Below are positions 3,121 to 24,420 of a DNA stretch of 64,000 nucleotides, in pieces. Position numbers and translations under genes: made by a program. Under the pieces are notes generated by a model. The model did no database searches. It was not told the origin of the DNA and saw nothing but the letters and a program-made list of their open reading frames with translations. The stretch comes from Shigella phage phi25-307. Numbering within the stretch: position 1 is the first letter of the stretch; every line of letters starts with the position of its first letter. Location of the stretch: sequence record MG589383; one strand, 5' to 3'.

Positions 3121-4110
3121 TTATTTATAGTAAGAATTATGATTTTCGAGATAGACTTGTTCAAGGAAGTCATCCCAGAAACTCATATCTACTTTTTGTT
3201 GCATGCCGTTCTTGGCAGCTTGTTCTGATGCTTGTTCAACTTGGTCAACGATATCTTCTAGGAATTCTTGTACAGTTTTAAATGTATGTTTACCAAGCTT
3301 AACATCGAGAATAAATGGAGCATCCTGAAGTGGGTAAACCAGGTCGCCTGTTTTGTAAATTTCCAATAATTGAAGTCCACCACGACATGCATGACTCAAT
3401 GCTTTCCAGTCAATACCTTCGTTAGCTTCTGCCTTACGAGCACGTTCACCATAGTTCTCTTCCAGTTTAACCAGGATGGCATTGAACTCTTTATTGGTTA
3501 ACGTGTCTTGGAATTTACGGTCTAACAGATTATAGAATGTTTGCTTACCTGTTTTCTCGTTTTCAGTTTCAATCCACGAAGCAAATTCACCTACGGGCAG
3601 AACATTCTTCATATGTGATAAACGAATTACTGCACCATTATCAAAGTATTGTCCCCATTCATTAGAACGTTTAAGGGCTTGACGAAGAACAGCCAGTCGA
3701 GAACCCTTGACGCCGTATTTAGAAGCTTGCTTACGAACATACCCTAAATAAGATTTCATGTTAGTAGTATAGAAACGAGACCTGTTGTCTTGAATATACT
3801 TCCACACGTCAGGCAAATCAGATTTAACTACTAAACTTGGTGGAGTGTGAAGCATATCTAATGCGACGGTTTCACCATCCGCAGCTAGTTTAAAGAAATA
3901 TTTGAGACTATACAACTCATGGTCCACGTCGTCTTTTGTGTTCTTAGAAGATGTGTTATTCGTGTTCTTGCTCATATGTTCTTTAACGTTACCGGTCAAG
4001 ATGTCACGAGCATGAGGGACGTAAATTTCTTTAAAATCAACGTCAGATTCAGGAGTAGACGTTCCATAAAGGTGGCTACCAAAGTAGCCTTTCATAATTG
4101 TTTTCATCAT
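3121..4110 (-). CDS. Pol-beta superfamily nucleotidyltransferase-like protein, 329 aa
   Basis: GSHLYGTSTPESDVDF matches the hG[GS]x9-13Dh[DE]h nucleotidyltransferase signature; ATGATGA overlap with upstream membrane-protein gene. Confidence 0.7.
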   Translation of the reverse strand: MMKTIMKGYFGSHLYGTSTPESDVDFKEIYVPHARDILTGNVKEHMSKNTNNTSSKNTKDDVDHELYSLKYFFKLAADGETVALDMLHTPPSLVVKSDLPDVWKYIQDNRSRFYTTNMKSYLGYVRKQASKYGVKGSRLAVLRQALKRSNEWGQYFDNGAVIRLSHMKNVLPVGEFASWIETENEKTGKQTFYNLLDRKFQDTLTNKEFNAILVKLEENYGERARKAEANEGIDWKALSHACRGGLQLLEIYKTGDLVYPLQDAPFILDVKLGKHTFKTVQEFLEDIVDQVEQASEQAAKNGMQQKVDMSFWDDFLEQVYLENHNSYYK

Positions 4111-14942: not shown

Positions 14943-15401
14943 TTATAGGATGGTAGTGAGCACCTTATATAATGATTTGCCCATTACATATTCCCATTGA
15001 GAAGGTTTAATTAAAGCGAATGCATCAAATTCAGGAATCTGTCGTCCGTCTGGGAATGTATGATAGGAATTACAAACACTGTTTCTGAATTGCTCGTGCT
15101 CTACAGGGATGGTATATAGGAACAGATGAATATTCTTATTGTCTGAGTAACGATGTTCACCTAGGTCTTTCAGGAAGGCAGGGTCATATTGTGTAAACCC
15201 AGTTTCTTCTTCGCATTCACGAATAGCTGCTTCAATAGGAGATTCACCGGGCTCGACACGACCTTTAGGAATATCCCACCGATGAGCTAAAGAACCTTTA
15301 GGACGAGAACCAGTTACACGCCCCATGAATAATTCTTTATCTTCGGTAAGGAAAATAATACCAGCTGATAGTTCTTTCACTTTATTTTTCTTACTCATCA
15401 T
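14943..15401 (-). CDS. nudE: Nudix hydrolase NudE
   Basis: Nudix box GRVEPGESPIEAAIRECEEETG; start chosen at ATG 15399-15401 (AGGAA RBS; ATGATGA overlap with upstream stop). Confidence 0.85.
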   Translation of the reverse strand: MMSKKNKVKELSAGIIFLTEDKELFMGRVTGSRPKGSLAHRWDIPKGRVEPGESPIEAAIRECEEETGFTQYDPAFLKDLGEHRYSDNKNIHLFLYTIPVEHEQFRNSVCNSYHTFPDGRQIPEFDAFALIKPSQWEYVMGKSLYKVLTTIL

Positions 15402-15796
15402 CTCAAATTCCTGCATTCGGTAATAAAACGTTCAACTTCATTATTCTTGGCCTTTATCTTGTCTTTACGTTCCTGTAAACTACTTTTAACAAGATTAATA
15501 ATGATGCCTACAGTACCTCCACCAATTATACCACCAATAATACTTACGATAGTAGATGCTAATAAGATGGCGATAATATCTAGTACAGCAAAGGCACTTA
15601 CTTTAGTACTAAAAAACCATATAGACGGTACAAATATAATCCATCCTGTTATCCATTGGCACTTATTGAAAAACCTTTCAAGCTCAGCTTGAGTTGTTCG
15701 TATTACTTCATCAATAGGTTGATATCCATTAATGTATCTGTTCACGATAATACCTGCTGGCTGGTCGATTTTAAATTCTTGGCAAATATGTTTCAC
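15398..15796 (-). CDS. membrane protein with C-terminal ERFITECR motif, 132 aa
   Basis: Hydrophobic segments incl. GGIIGGGTVGIIINL; only a GTG start at 15796 with no obvious RBS, so 5' end uncertain. Confidence 0.45.
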   Translation of the reverse strand: MKHICQEFKIDQPAGIIVNRYINGYQPIDEVIRTTQAELERFFNKCQWITGWIIFVPSIWFFSTKVSAFAVLDIIAILLASTIVSIIGGIIGGGTVGIIINLVKSSLQERKDKIKAKNNEVERFITECRNLR

Positions 15797-15867
15797 TAAG
15801 TAGGATGGACAGGATGTCCAATCTACTGAATAGTATGAAATACCTTCATTGCCATCAACTATTCATA

Positions 15868-16173
15868 TTATTTTCCTCGACATTCTTTAATGAAATTTTC
15901 TAGATTGGTAGATTCAATAGCTTTTTTACGAGCTTCTGCGTGTTCTTCTTCAGACAATTTACATTTATAATTGACCCAGACATTATGGTCGAAACTAGTC
16001 GTGGCATATAATAACAATGCTCCAACGAATAGCAAAAACGGTGATAAGAATACAAAACCAGGAACACCATCCATATCGTAAGCCTTTTGTAATACTGCAA
16101 CAGAAAGAGCTGCGTAAAAAGGTGATGCAAATATTGTTAAAAGACCAATTCGGTTGGTTTCGCCTAATTTCAT
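15868..16173 (-). CDS. membrane protein with C-terminal ENFIKECR motif, 101 aa
   Basis: Two hydrophobic segments; ATG 16171-16173, GAGGAG RBS; early promoter 16202-16231. Confidence 0.6.
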   Translation of the reverse strand: MKLGETNRIGLLTIFASPFYAALSVAVLQKAYDMDGVPGFVFLSPFLLFVGALLLYATTSFDHNVWVNYKCKLSEEEHAEARKKAIESTNLENFIKECRGK

Positions 16174-16201
16174 AATATTCTCCTCATGTTTTAATAGGAC
16201 T

Positions 16202-16231
16202 ACTATAACATAGTCCTATCATGTTGTAAAC
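16202..16231 (-). promoter_or_regulatory. early promoter with flanking inverted repeat
   Basis: gtaaac 16226-16231, actata 16202-16207; flanked by ataggact/agtcctat. Confidence 0.55.
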
Positions 16232-16243
16232 AGTTTTGCGAAA

Positions 16244-17200
16244 CTATTTGAAAGGTTTTACCATATGGAAATTTTGTTTGAAACGTTTGACATAATCATC
16301 ATGTCCTAAGCTTTGGTACATACTTACTACTTTGCTGTAGTTTTCCCAGGCATACTCACGGAACCAACCAGAGGTGATGCTTGTACAGACTTTTTCTAAT
16401 GCCATCATAAAACTGGCTTCAGGGTTAATTTTAAAGTCATTAGGAATCTGAGAACGTTCTAATGCTAGTACACATGATTCTTCGTATACACCGGCCAATT
16501 TGACCATTTCTGGTAATGATTCGAACTTCTCACGTGAGGTCATGACTTCAGAACCGTCTTTCATATAAAATGTATACGCTGGACGGTCTGTTAGTGCAAT
16601 GGCTTCATGAATAGTATCATGGTCATATGTATAGATATCATCTTTAAAGAACGCACTTTTAGAAGTGTCAAGAACCGGGTGAGCATAGTTCAAGGTTTCT
16701 TTCTGGCGTTTCAGCATAATTTCAGTAAGTTCATCGTTCAGTGTAACACCTTTACCACGAAGATACTGAATATGGTTCATAGTCTTTAAAAAGAACGGAT
16801 TATTTTTCTTGAAACGATGAGACATCTTAATTGCAAGACATATCTCAGGAGTTGCCCAGTAAAACCCATTCAAACAGTCTTTAGACAAATGTTTCTTGGC
16901 GTATTTTAAAAGGTCATAAGAAGACGTGAAATCTTCAGGAGTGAGTTCACCGACTAATTCACGGACATTAGTGATTGCCGGAACAATATACGCTTCAAAA
17001 TGAGTTTCGCGTCCATTATGGAAGCATTTGAAAACTTGGACATCAGGGTTATCTTGATGAACATATACACCCATCATTTGATTTTTGAATGTATTCCAAG
17101 AACCTTGGTCTGCAATAAAGTCCCAGTCACTATTTTTGATAGCGTTAGAATCAATAAGACCATGATAGTGAAGTGCACGAGAACCAATAACTAACATCAT
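16244..17200 (-). CDS. nucleotidyltransferase-like protein, 318 aa
   Basis: N-terminal IGSRALHYHGL...NSDWDF resembles the GS...DxD Pol-beta nucleotidyltransferase signature; GAGGAAA RBS. Confidence 0.55.
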   Translation of the reverse strand: MMLVIGSRALHYHGLIDSNAIKNSDWDFIADQGSWNTFKNQMMGVYVHQDNPDVQVFKCFHNGRETHFEAYIVPAITNVRELVGELTPEDFTSSYDLLKYAKKHLSKDCLNGFYWATPEICLAIKMSHRFKKNNPFFLKTMNHIQYLRGKGVTLNDELTEIMLKRQKETLNYAHPVLDTSKSAFFKDDIYTYDHDTIHEAIALTDRPAYTFYMKDGSEVMTSREKFESLPEMVKLAGVYEESCVLALERSQIPNDFKINPEASFMMALEKVCTSITSGWFREYAWENYSKVVSMYQSLGHDDYVKRFKQNFHMVKPFK

Positions 17201-17228
17201 AATATTTTCCTCGGATTAATTCATTAAC

Positions 17229-17468
17229 TTAAATTTCACGACATGCGATATCATATTCATCCCAGAGGTCATCGTGTGAAGCCTCTACCAATGGAACGAT
17301 TGTACCATTTATGTCTTCATTATAAGGGCAAATTGTACAGTGTGCATCTTCGAATCGAATGCCTTTGTGTTCAGATTTTTTATAACGCATATCGAATATC
17401 TTTGCAAACTTTTCACGAGTAATGGTTTTACCAACCACTTTGGTTCCGATACTTTCGTAATAAATCAT
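17229..17468 (-). CDS. hypothetical small Cys-rich protein, 79 aa
   Basis: ORF track; GGAG RBS; early promoter 17497-17526. Confidence 0.55.
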   Translation of the reverse strand: MIYYESIGTKVVGKTITREKFAKIFDMRYKKSEHKGIRFEDAHCTICPYNEDINGTIVPLVEASHDDLWDEYDIACREI

Positions 17469-17737: not shown

Positions 17738-18010
17738 TTAGCAAGTGTGAGAAGACGCAATCCAACCGCCAGTTTCGAGGCTCAGATTGTAGTCGTATTG
17801 GTAAACGTCAGCCCATTCAGCATAGCCGTTTTTTGTACAACGTTCAAGATCGGCTTTAAGCTGTCCGGGTGAATGATAGGTTCCACCCATACCATAAGCT
17901 GGATACAAGTCGAATGTTGTGTTTTGTTTATCAGCAATTTCTTTGGCAGCATCAATAGCTGCATAGATTTTTGCTACAGCTTCAGCCAATTCGGTTTGTT
18001 CTTTAGACAT
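17738..18010 (-). CDS. small protein ending GGWIASSHTC (paralog of 18020-18325)
   Basis: ORF track; shares N-terminal MSK and C-terminal G-W-x-x-SS-x-x-C with the adjacent gene. Confidence 0.6.
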   Translation of the reverse strand: MSKEQTELAEAVAKIYAAIDAAKEIADKQNTTFDLYPAYGMGGTYHSPGQLKADLERCTKNGYAEWADVYQYDYNLSLETGGWIASSHTC

Positions 18011-18019
18011 AGTGATTCC

Positions 18020-18325
18020 TTAGCACAACGCAGAAGACGAAACCCAAGCACCTTCAGTAATAACGTAACCGTTACCTTCACGCTTAACATCGCCACCATT
18101 ATTTTCAATTTCATCTTTCATCCACTGGGATACGATTTCACCCTTAGGATAATAAGTACGACCGCTACCATAATCACCTACAGAAAATGATACGGCATAT
18201 TGGTCTGCGATCTTTGTTGCTTCTTCTTCGATACGTTCAGCTTGATTCAGAAGTTTATAAATTGCATCTGAAGCGGATTCGGCATCATTAAACTCTGGTA
18301 CTTTAATTTCAATAATCTTACTCAT
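18020..18325 (-). CDS. small protein ending GAWVSSSALC (paralog of 17738-18010)
   Basis: ORF track; tandem paralog. Confidence 0.6.
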   Translation of the reverse strand: MSKIIEIKVPEFNDAESASDAIYKLLNQAERIEEEATKIADQYAVSFSVGDYGSGRTYYPKGEIVSQWMKDEIENNGGDVKREGNGYVITEGAWVSSSALC

Positions 18326-18681
18326 TTTCTACATTCCTTAATAAAGTTTTCGATTGTTTCATTTTCACGTCTAGCTAGGAGTTCATTATAACTAATCATT
18401 TGAGAAGCGTAAATCTTTTTATTTTTCTTGTTATGGTTTATAAAATCGTAGTAAAAATAGACTACAGTACAAAATGATGCGATGGATGCAAAGGCTTGGG
18501 TATACCGTAAGTCCTGCCATTGGTCTGTGAATCCACCAGTGTTCCCTATAAATCCTAACACAACGCCGTCAATAAGAAATCCGACTAATCCAAAGGCAAA
18601 TCCCATGCCAATACTCATAATAAAAATTAGAATGTTCTCGCCAAGAGAAGGCCATACGGTTAAGAGTTGAGGCTTTTGCAT
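18322..18681 (-). CDS. membrane protein with C-terminal ENFIKECR motif, 119 aa
   Basis: Hydrophobic N-terminal two-thirds; AAGGAG RBS. Confidence 0.6.
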   Translation of the reverse strand: MQKPQLLTVWPSLGENILIFIMSIGMGFAFGLVGFLIDGVVLGFIGNTGGFTDQWQDLRYTQAFASIASFCTVVYFYYDFINHNKKNKKIYASQMISYNELLARRENETIENFIKECRK

Positions 18682-19055
18682 CTTATCTCCTTAACGAATT
18701 CCATAGCTTCTTCATATTCATACTTTTTAACAGCTTCATCATACTGAGCTTGGGCTTTTGCGCACTGAACTTTCCATTCTCTTAATCGGGCTCTGTGATG
18801 ACGTCCTTGGTACCAATATCCCACCCAGTTAATAGGCATTAATAAAAATGGTACAATAAACGACCCGGCTATAATAAGTAAAAACACTGCATCAGACGAT
18901 ATAACTTCACTAGAATCTAAAACAGCTCCTATAATCATAAAGATTAAAAATGCTAAAGCTAAAATAGGGCCAAATAGTACTTCGTTTGGGATTAATTTAC
19001 GCTTGTATTCATACGCCCAGGGCTTACTTGGCATGTATAGGGTTGGCTTTGACAT
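18660..19055 (-). CDS. membrane protein with C-terminal EFVKEIRCK motif
   Basis: ORF track frame; track start is TTG; first ATG at 19053-19055 used, 5' end uncertain. Confidence 0.5.
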   Translation of the reverse strand: MSKPTLYMPSKPWAYEYKRKLIPNEVLFGPILALAFLIFMIIGAVLDSSEVISSDAVFLLIIAGSFIVPFLLMPINWVGYWYQGRHHRARLREWKVQCAKAQAQYDEAVKKYEYEEAMEFVKEIRCKSLNS

Positions 19056-19620
19056 ATTCTCTACATTCCATAATAAATTGCTCAAGGATTAAATTGTTAG
19101 TGAAATTAGGACTAACAACCATGGTTTCATAAAGCGCATCAATAGCACTTAAAGCATCAGCTCTTTTAAGCAAAGGCTTGCCTTCATACATAGTTTCAGA
19201 ATCGACGATTAACGTAAAGTAATATTTTTTATTATCGACTAGAACTTCAGTATCGATATAAAACATGTTAGACCTTAAGAGCTTATCTCTAAAACCATAA
19301 TAATCTTCAGAGCGTTCGCTGATATAGTCCCGTTCAGTGTTTAAACAACAAACAGACCATGTAGGAGCAATGAAATCAGTGAATCTAATATCATGGTCTG
19401 CAACTAGTTTAGCAATAGCTCTGATATCATGAATCATAATACCTGGGGCTAATAAAGATTTTCGGTTATTTGCATATTCAGTTGTCTCATAAGAAGACGA
19501 CCAGTACCATTTACGTCCAGTTGCAACATATCGTAATGAATCAACTAAAGACGTAGGTGGATTTACCTTATTTCGGAACTCTTCGAACATTGAGTCAATA
19601 TCATTATTTTGGTTTCGCAT
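19024..19620 (-). CDS. hypothetical protein with C-terminal EQFIMECREY motif, 198 aa
   Basis: ORF track frame; start refined to ATG 19618-19620 with AAGGAG RBS. Confidence 0.55.
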   Translation of the reverse strand: MRNQNNDIDSMFEEFRNKVNPPTSLVDSLRYVATGRKWYWSSSYETTEYANNRKSLLAPGIMIHDIRAIAKLVADHDIRFTDFIAPTWSVCCLNTERDYISERSEDYYGFRDKLLRSNMFYIDTEVLVDNKKYYFTLIVDSETMYEGKPLLKRADALSAIDALYETMVVSPNFTNNLILEQFIMECREYVKANPIHAK

Positions 19621-19637
19621 GTTAACTCCTTTATTAT

Positions 19638-19661
19638 CCAAAAGGAGGACCGGAGTCCTCC
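19638..19661 (-). terminator. intrinsic terminator
   Basis: ggaggac-cgga-gtcctcc hairpin followed by TTTTGG on minus strand. Confidence 0.55.
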
Positions 19662-22454: not shown

Positions 22455-22528
22455 TGACCCAGACCAGATTCGAACTGGTAACCTTTCCCTTATGAGGGGA
22501 CTGCTGCTAACCGTTGAGCTACAGGGCC
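22455..22528 (-). tRNA. tRNA with CAT anticodon (Met or lysidine-Ile type)
   Basis: Acceptor GGCCCTG/CTGGGTC (one mismatch), D-loop with GG, anticodon loop CTCATAA, T-arm ACCAG-TTCGAAT-CTGGT; D and anticodon stems imperfect. Confidence 0.55.
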
Positions 22529-24360: not shown

Positions 24361-24390
24361 TTTATTTTCCTAATTAATTTTGATAGGACT

Positions 24391-24420
24391 ACTATAACAT
24401 AGTCCTATCAGCATGTAAAC
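24391..24420 (-). promoter_or_regulatory. early promoter with flanking inverted repeat
   Basis: gtaaac 24415-24420, actata 24391-24396; flanked by ataggact/agtcctat. Confidence 0.55.

Follow-up and report, generated by a model that had tools for sequence, protein, structure and literature searches.

The 64,000-nucleotide stretch of Shigella phage phi25-307 DNA analyzed here (sequence record MG589383; hereafter the window) comes from a T4-type phage of the RB69 group (Mosigvirus) and carries a 318-amino acid (aa) open reading frame (ORF) at 16244..17200 of the minus strand. The product of this ORF, which starts at an ATG codon and opens MMLVIGSRALHYHGL...NSDWDF / MMLVIGSRALHYHGLIDSNAIKNSDWDF, represents a separate branch of the Pol-beta nucleotidyltransferase (NTase) fold that is specific to viruses and whose C-terminal lobe (C-lobe) is both highly conserved and unique. 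Structure prediction and the conservation of the putative active site make it highly probable that the protein is a real, active NTase-fold enzyme. Its reaction is proposed much more tentatively: it may be a stand-alone, two-lobed Pol-beta NTase that adds a nucleoside monophosphate (NMP) to the 3'-OH of RNA, with tRNA ends as the leading candidate. A preliminary description of the same DNA had noted the ORF and its start, both of which were confirmed here (the strand was absent from that description), and had called the product NTase-like on account of a GS...DxD arrangement.

Structure comparison supports that assignment. The overall fold is like that of solved Pol-beta NTases, and the hG[GS] motif, the [DE]h[DE]h motif and the third carboxylate are all present in the N-terminal lobe (N-lobe). 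In the AlphaFold2 (AF2) model, V-I-G6-S7 comes after strand 2-5, at the start of helix 6-12, D25-W-D27-F opens strand 26-31, and E69 lies on strand 64-73, so that the motif positions are as the fold demands. Conservation was read from a 68-sequence alignment of relatives (A1) and from a wider set of 153 sequences, consisting of the query, 50%-identity cluster representatives and three homologues from phages, with 28-55% identity to the query. All five residues (G6, S7, D25, D27, and E69) are invariant in A1. In the wider set, the first four are conserved at 98-100% and E69, in a region where the alignment is harder, at 88%.

The structure-match list was headed by MenT1 (score 10.0, 145 residues aligned), followed by ANT(2'')/AadB (8.7), MenT3/TglT (8.4), MenT4 (7.8), TM1012 (7.7), 5uvd (7.6), JHP933 (7.5), and LnuA (7.2). 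Foldseek against the Protein Data Bank (PDB) gave the same ranking with weak E-values (best 1.4e-3). These weak values, together with the lack of a sequence-level match to any NTase hidden Markov model (HMM), are what could be said for a fortuitous GS...DxD match or for a catalytically dead scaffold. The preliminary description had itself named a predicted structure without a Pol-beta fold as grounds for rejecting the assignment; the fold was found and its triad is intact, which largely refutes this explanation and leaves it very improbable. The phrase "like minimal nucleotidyltransferases", by contrast, did not hold. The nearest structures are the bi-lobed MenT/AbiEii enzymes and ANT(2'')/Lnu rather than the single-domain, HEPN-paired MNT/MntA proteins of ~100-130 aa, and no MNT, MntA or Polbeta HMM was matched, including the NCBIfam MntA model. 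The GS-to-SDWD spacing is 16 residues in the target as compared to nine in the phage MNT-like motif, and no HEPN gene was found among the annotated neighbors of the target family.

At the sequence level, the protein matched two Pfam models in order, DUF7277 (95.5 bits, E = 3e-27, aa 2-101) and DUF7275 (265 bits, E = 5e-79, aa 120-305), each with a gathering cut-off of 27 bits. It also matched PHROG 2141 (E = 8.9e-150), whose function is listed as unknown. Searches of Pfam with the query and 68 relatives (E <= 10), and of NCBIfam and PADLOC, found no known NTase, AbiE, MntA or HD family, and the only Polbeta model match came from one of the 68 relatives (E = 0.098). A match to HisJ (E = 0.0019; 17.9 bits against a 90-bit cut-off) was set aside as noise. 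PDB sequence searches with the single protein and with a 68-sequence profile returned only a spurious match to PsaB. By sequence criteria, the target lies outside DUF1814/MenT, MNT, RlaP, and ANT/Lnu. Some homologues (M5.1, DP45, and Kimel) already bear the GenBank label "putative nucleotidyltransferase"; no paper on the family came up when the literature was searched for its DUF, PHROG, and locus names, nor did anything else of relevance.

The C-lobe makes up two thirds of the protein, is helical, and is its most conserved part. K125, H128, K139, H194, D195, H198, E240, E241, E248, and R249 are 100% conserved in the 153-sequence set, and K270, S274, S277, G278, and R281 are nearly invariant. 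K125, H128, K139, H194-D195-H198, E240-E241, E248-R249, K270, and G278 are retained even in Gordonia phage Smoothie gp16 and Streptomyces phage Blueeyedbeauty gp205, the shortest members and those that have diverged most. Past its first helices, the C-lobe matched no solved PDB structure in either sequence or structure searches. An HD-domain phosphohydrolase, with its H...HD...D metal site, was considered as the fold of this lobe and was rejected by structure comparison. The bacterial class II CCA-adding enzyme, which consists of an NTase head and an HD phosphohydrolase domain, offers an analogy to the target. Residue 143 (16772-16774, minus strand) lies within K-T-M-x-D-I and is Asp in 91% of the family; in the target a His takes its place, as it does in most of the relatives that are >60% identical to the target and come from enterobacterial T4-type phages (KTMNHIQYL, KTMHHIRFL). 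The change is lineage-specific and affects a near-invariant, possibly catalytic site.

The family is large, comprising 2,212 clusters at 90% identity and 1,577 at 50% identity. Nearly all of the best 150 cluster representatives are about 300 aa long and cover the profile over essentially its whole length. Longer homologues show only unannotated N-terminal extensions or miscalled starts, with no domain fusion recognized. One of these, from an Acinetobacter phage (IMG/VR 650627003; locus L091, 9365-10600), has 411 aa with a ~100-aa N-terminal extension lacking a Pfam match, which could be a real fusion or a miscalled upstream start; BFVD entry E5EYJ0, also 411 aa, is possibly an extended version of the same kind. 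The family is carried in 732 phage records, and among the hosts of these phages are Escherichia, Klebsiella, Aeromonas, and Acinetobacter (T4-type), Pseudomonas (Otagovirus), Vibrio, Gordonia, and Streptomyces. A member is also encoded by Escherichia phage ukendt (Phapecoctavirus), and BFVD holds members from the giant viruses Sylvanvirus and Satyrvirus. No match was found in 5,426 complete E. coli genomes. Cellular replicons gave three, on large actinobacterial or Brevibacillus replicons, and 185,579 species genomes gave five contigs of metagenome-assembled genomes (MAGs), of which the single one examined was phage-like (phage replication genes and a T4-type RNA ligase, the latter identified by a Pfam match). 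The family is virus-specific and essentially absent from cellular genomes.

Gene neighborhoods were surveyed at 97 loci with flanks of up to 10 kb, representing 54 lineages (80% identity of the target), by calling ORFs and clustering the neighbors. No conserved partner gene was found across these loci, and the genes next to the target change with almost every lineage: no shared cluster of adjacent neighbors extends over more than 4/54 lineages, and the downstream ORFs are mutually unrelated. The family gene stands alone. The commonest neighbor, always within 3 kb upstream, is a small unknown protein found in 17/54 lineages. Its relatives in the window are two adjacent paralogues of 90 and 101 aa (17738-18010 and 18020-18325, both minus strand), which share YG(M/S)GGTY(H/Y)(S/P), end in GGW(I/V)(A/S)SS..C, and have no Pfam match. 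The other recurrent neighbors were ribonucleotide reductase (RNR) alpha (13 lineages), Metallophos (11), RNR beta and ThyX (10 each), T4-type RNA ligase 1 (Rnl1; seven), and PNKP and Nampt (six each).

The enzymes nearest to the target in structure are MenT1, MenT3, MenT4, and AbiEii (DUF1814, PF08843), the NTases of type IV/VII toxin-antitoxin systems. Like the target, they combine an NTase N-lobe with a helical C-lobe, and MenT1, MenT3, and MenT4 align with it over 145-150 residues, beyond the 105-residue N-lobe. The length of about 300 aa in two lobes also agrees with MenT3 (290 aa) and MenT4 (292 aa). MenT enzymes add nucleotides to tRNA 3' ends, and K137 and D152 are catalytic C-lobe residues of MenT1 (PMC10435456). 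As possible counterparts of the MenT Lys and Asp, the target family offers the invariant K125 and K139 and position 143; K125 is inferred to be a candidate for the catalytic Lys. There are also clear differences. PF08843 was unmatched by the query and 68 relatives (E <= 10), and PADLOC gave no match (E <= 1). MenT/AbiEii proteins are found next to an antitoxin in bacteria and archaea, whereas the target is viral and lacks an antitoxin or any conserved neighbor. The target C-lobe is larger than that of MenT, and its H/HDxxH/EE/ER cluster has not been reported among the MenT catalytic residues.

An RNA 3' end is tentatively preferred as the acceptor because the closest solved structures are tRNA-extending MenT/AbiEii enzymes and because the acceptor must be universal, given that viruses of Proteobacteria, Actinobacteria, and amoebae have all retained the family. 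A universal acceptor favors RNA, nucleotides or cofactors over a host-specific protein. That the acceptor is specifically tRNA is a more doubtful proposition, drawn from the same analogy. From fold homology, D25, D27, and E69 of the N-lobe would hold two Mg2+ ions, and a nucleoside triphosphate (NTP) would be bound by G6-S7 together with the basic C-lobe residues K125, R129, and K139. The NMP would then be moved to a hydroxyl of the acceptor lodged in the cleft between the lobes, while the H128/H194-D195-H198/E240-E241/E248 cluster could form the acceptor pocket or a second metal site. Acting in this way, the enzyme might reshape or protect the tRNA pool or reverse damage. Putative active-site residues of both lobes (G6, S7, D25, D27, and the ten fully conserved C-lobe residues listed above) are conserved at 98-100% and are also present in the actinophage versions that diverge most. 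A bolder version is rather unlikely: a pan-viral enzyme of MenT/AbiEii stock whose NTase lobe extends tRNA or RNA 3' ends after a second metal site in the C-lobe has trimmed or dephosphorylated damaged ends, in a "heal-and-extend" response to host nucleases or toxins, or which selectively disables host tRNAs.

Several weak hints from gene context point towards RNA. Genes for Rnl1 and PNKP lie 4-6 kb upstream of the family gene in 6-7/54 lineages, and also upstream on a 341-kb phage contig; an Rnl1 gene is carried by the phage-like MAG contig as well. An annotated "RNA ligase" is encoded four genes upstream of the homologue in Blueeyedbeauty, a tRNA cluster lies 1.2 kb from the homologue in Smoothie, and the phage of the window has a tRNA-Met of its own without an encoded CCA. 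A number of observations weigh against an RNA acceptor. The searches of Pfam, NCBIfam, and PADLOC linked the target to no DUF1814/AbiEii or RNA NTase family. The RNA ligase and PNKP proximity stems mainly from related jumbo-phage contigs. Genes for tRNA occur within 10 kb in 13/54 lineages, eight of which belong to one enterobacterial synteny group, a number that, by estimate, chance alone would roughly produce. Members of the family tend to be mildly acidic (median isoelectric point (pI) 6.2, net charge -4), which is atypical of RNA-binding enzymes. The residue equivalences between the target and MenT are candidates only, and the possible match to the MenT catalytic Asp, D143, is replaced by His in this phage clade. 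Lastly, the phage already has an RlaP NTase, an enzyme type that adds NMPs to RNA 3' ends.

Next in rank, and somewhat less probable than an RNA 3' end, is a small-molecule or nucleotide-metabolite acceptor. An ANT(2'')/Lnu-like enzyme would in that case NMP-ylate a hydroxyl or phosphate of a universal metabolite, such as an NAD+/ADP-ribose-related compound or a dinucleoside polyphosphate, bound in the acidic, His-rich pocket of the C-lobe, and the virus would benefit through nucleotide or NAD+ economy or the destruction of an immune signal. The ANT/Lnu structure matches, the acidic pI, and the nature of the pocket all agree with such an enzyme. So do some of the neighbors: in Vibrio phage K460 (locus L012, 1210-5603), Prs-like, weak macro-like, and Nampt-like genes lie ~650 bp upstream of the homologue; in the six lineages with Nampt, it lies ~2.3 kb upstream; in the window, a NudE Nudix hydrolase (NADH, ADP-ribose, Ap3A) is encoded two genes downstream of the target; and the Metallophos phosphoesterases, RNR, and ThyX recur as given above. 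However, each such neighbor is present in no more than about 25% of the lineages, and they lie in parts of the genome devoted to early nucleotide metabolism in general. The genes in K460 look like an NAD+ reconstitution cluster, but they resemble the complete two-enzyme NAD+ pathway NARP1, which would need no extra NTase, and no NMN/NAD enzyme is known to have this fold. ANT(2'')-Ia (AadB, 175 aa) and LnuA (158 aa) are about half the size of the target and share no sequence similarity with it, and their aminoglycoside and lincosamide substrates have no obvious relevance for viruses of such varied hosts.

The remaining activities considered for the fold are each unlikely. With its NTase fold and intact triad, the protein could convert NTPs into cyclic or linear oligonucleotides that jam or mimic host immune signaling; such synthesis is the activity of CD-NTases, of OAS, and of the NTases that Ho et al. 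studied in phages. A precedent exists in phage Pol-beta NTases that reportedly inhibit TIR-STING and produce 3'3'-cGAMP and c-di-AMP, and the BCP1 enzyme among them likewise has an SDWD motif (bioRxiv 10.1101/2022.06.09.495361). The target nevertheless misfits the GS-x-AY[GAN]T-x4-SDxD pattern and lacks a PF10127 match, both of which are found in the other NTase of the window; no cGAS/OAS or CD-NTase structure was among the best matches; and a target within a single bacterial immune system is at odds with a family spread over viruses of very different hosts, giant viruses included. Distribution also tells against an enzyme that AMPylates or NMP-ylates a protein of the host or of the phage, like MntA acting on HepT, or in the manner of GlnE and GlnD, in order to switch it during takeover. 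A large, strongly conserved C-lobe could recognize a protein, and early expression would suit a takeover role, but the extreme conservation of this lobe across viruses of Gram-negatives, actinobacteria, and eukaryotes is hard to square with a host-specific target, and MntA, GlnE, and Fic-type families were unmatched. An equally improbable role is that of a MenT-like toxin that shuts off the host by blocking tRNA charging, or that forms a phage toxin-antitoxin pair in which a small neighbor restrains it. MenT1 is the best structural match and MenT3 and MenT4 are in the top four, and a 79-aa ORF lies directly upstream in the same promoter-bounded cassette, as in menA1-menT1. The variable neighborhood argues against such an arrangement (the 79-aa ORF is not kept beside the NTase gene in other lineages), the AbiE/MenT models of PADLOC and Pfam were unmatched, and translation must go on for a virulent phage. 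The pair itself was ruled out, there being no conserved neighbor in the 54 lineages. A link to the RB69 arabinosyl-5-hydroxycytosine pathway was also rejected; that pathway uses gp45-55 and gp3, and the target gene is not mentioned in its description (PMC13326640).

The family is important to note because, in spite of its size and of the striking conservation of its putative active site, it bears DUF names only. If it were a virus-wide, antitoxin-free relative of tRNA-extending toxins, it would point to an unrecognized viral editing or repair of host RNA or of the nucleotide pool, because its nearest solved relatives poison translation by extending tRNA ends. If it acts on a small molecule or is redundant with RlaP, it would be one more accessory NTase. 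Phages of the RB69 type are genetically tractable, which makes the question of the substrate directly testable.

The second NTase of the window, the product of 3121-4110 (minus strand), belongs to the RlaP family (PF10127, E = 1.1e-12). Its motif, GSHLYGTSTPESDVD, fits the GS-x-AY[GAN]T-x4-SDxD pattern of phage NTases that reportedly make cyclic dinucleotides. RlaP enzymes, of which two from Pseudomonas have been characterized, add 1-2 NMPs to RNA 3'-OH ends (bioRxiv 10.64898/2025.12.29.696909), and this is the kind of reaction proposed for the target. The two proteins are alike in belonging to the Pol-beta superfamily, in occurring in T4-type phages, and in their GS...SDxD motif; they differ in motif spacing and in their C-terminal domains. 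The preliminary description had considered them otherwise unrelated, which is true at the sequence level (best BLASTP E = 0.79). It had also found two distinct NTase genes in one accessory region unusual, a view that the phage records do not bear out. With a T4 homologue of 78% identity and 1,566 phage records that contain it, the RlaP gene is a widely conserved gene of T4-type phages and not a sporadic accessory one. RlaP is also found in bacteria, whereas the target family is virus-restricted, with no Tequatrovirus among the matches listed. The two genes are 12 kb apart, and their co-occurrence is unsurprising because both families are common in T4-type phages. Such NTases have been reported in large phages, singly or in greater number (PMC7824862).

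The coordinates of the NTase gene, its codons of interest, and the neighboring elements are collected below.

Table 1. Features of the NTase gene and of its surroundings in the window
Feature	Position	Strand	Evidence
Coding sequence, 318 aa, RB69ORF134c orthologue; Pfam DUF7277 + DUF7275	16244..17200	-	ORF call, Pfam, DNA matches
GAGG ribosome-binding site, 8-9 nt 5' of ATG	17209..17212	-	Read from sequence
Upstream 79-aa ORF, RB69ORF135c-like, probably co-transcribed with the NTase gene	17229..17468	-	ORF call
N-lobe, aa 1-105, Pol-beta-type NTase core; Pfam DUF7277 aa 2-101	16886..17200	-	Pfam, AF2 model
G6-S7 codons, hG[GS] motif between beta1 and first helix	17180..17185	-	G6 100%, S7 98% conserved; invariant in A1
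D25-W26-D27 codons GAC TGG GAC, putative metal-binding [DE]h[DE] motif at start of beta2	17120..17128	-	D25 98%, D27 100% conserved
E69 codon GAA, third carboxylate, strand 64-73	16994..16996	-	Invariant in A1; 88% in wider set
C-terminal helical lobe, aa 106-318; Pfam DUF7275 aa 120-305	16247..16885	-	Pfam E = 5e-79; AF2
K125-M-S-H128-R129, end of helix 118-127; K125, H128 invariant	16814..16828	-	A1, 153-sequence set
H194-D195-T-I-H198 (CAT GAT ACT ATT CAT), HDxxH motif starting helix 194-201	16607..16621	-	100% conserved
E240-E241...E248-R249, invariant acidic and basic residues on long helix 231-254	16454..16483	-	A1, AF2, 153-sequence set
PeSL-like element 5' of two-gene unit: TTTACA-N17-TATAGT with TG, overlapping 11-bp stem-loop	17489..17526	-	Sequence, folding
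Second, near-identical PeSL-like copy, 13 nt past NTase stop codon; closes cassette, drives next gene	16194..16231	-	Sequence, folding
Third copy of the 38-nt element	24383-24420	-	Sequence match

The gene is the orthologue of RB69ORF134c (RB69p134), a "hypothetical protein" located between e.3 and e.2/nudE in RB69. Its 957 bp are 97-98% identical at the DNA level to RB69, HX01, S143_2, and about 60 further phages, and the ORF is intact in 180 of the 202 phage records with a DNA-level match. It lies in a hyperplastic region whose gene content varies even between RB69 and the phage of the window. From the RB69ORF133c-like gene to nudE, for example, the window (14943-16173) has one ORF of 132 aa where the RB69 locus (L001, 9027-11192) has three, ORF132c, e.2, and ORF130c; this difference represents a local indel polymorphism within that region.

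The NTase gene has no promoter of its own. Two near-identical 38-nt elements bracket it together with the 79-aa ORF. All three copies of this element in the window are on the minus strand and read GTTTACA...GATAGGRCTATGTTATAGTAGTCCTAT, and none would be expected by chance. Each consists of an early-type sigma-70 promoter whose -10 box is overlapped by a stem-loop of 11-12 bp, with folding energies of -16 to -17.7 kcal/mol and z values of about -4.2 to -4.9. The elements resemble the PeSL ("promoter-early stem-loop") shuffling cassettes described for the hyperplastic regions of T4-type genomes (PMC2839356, PMC4122927). Early expression of the NTase gene is plausible because promoter and stem-loop elements of the T4-early type bracket the two-gene unit. 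The preliminary description had called it an early gene; a T4-early-type promoter with a stem-loop was found ahead of the unit, and the timing is read solely from that element.

Two tRNA genes of the phage were inspected at their 3' ends. The tRNA-Met gene (22455-22528, minus strand) ends CTGGGTCA and is followed by TATATT; its CCA must be added post-transcriptionally because it is not encoded. In the case of the adjoining tRNA-Arg gene, the CCA is ambiguous (...GTCTCGACCAA).

A run of small ORFs around the NTase gene (15398-15796, 15868-16173, 18322-18681, 18660-19085, and 19024-19641, all on the minus strand) has a motif of similar sequence at the C-terminal end or close to it, (N/R/Q)FI(K/T/M)ECR, with FVKEIRC in one ORF. 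In ORF 19024-19641, the motif lies ~13 residues ahead of the stop codon. Several members of the run appear by eye to be membrane-spanning, and the shared motif may reflect a paralogous family or a conserved DNA signal at the gene ends.

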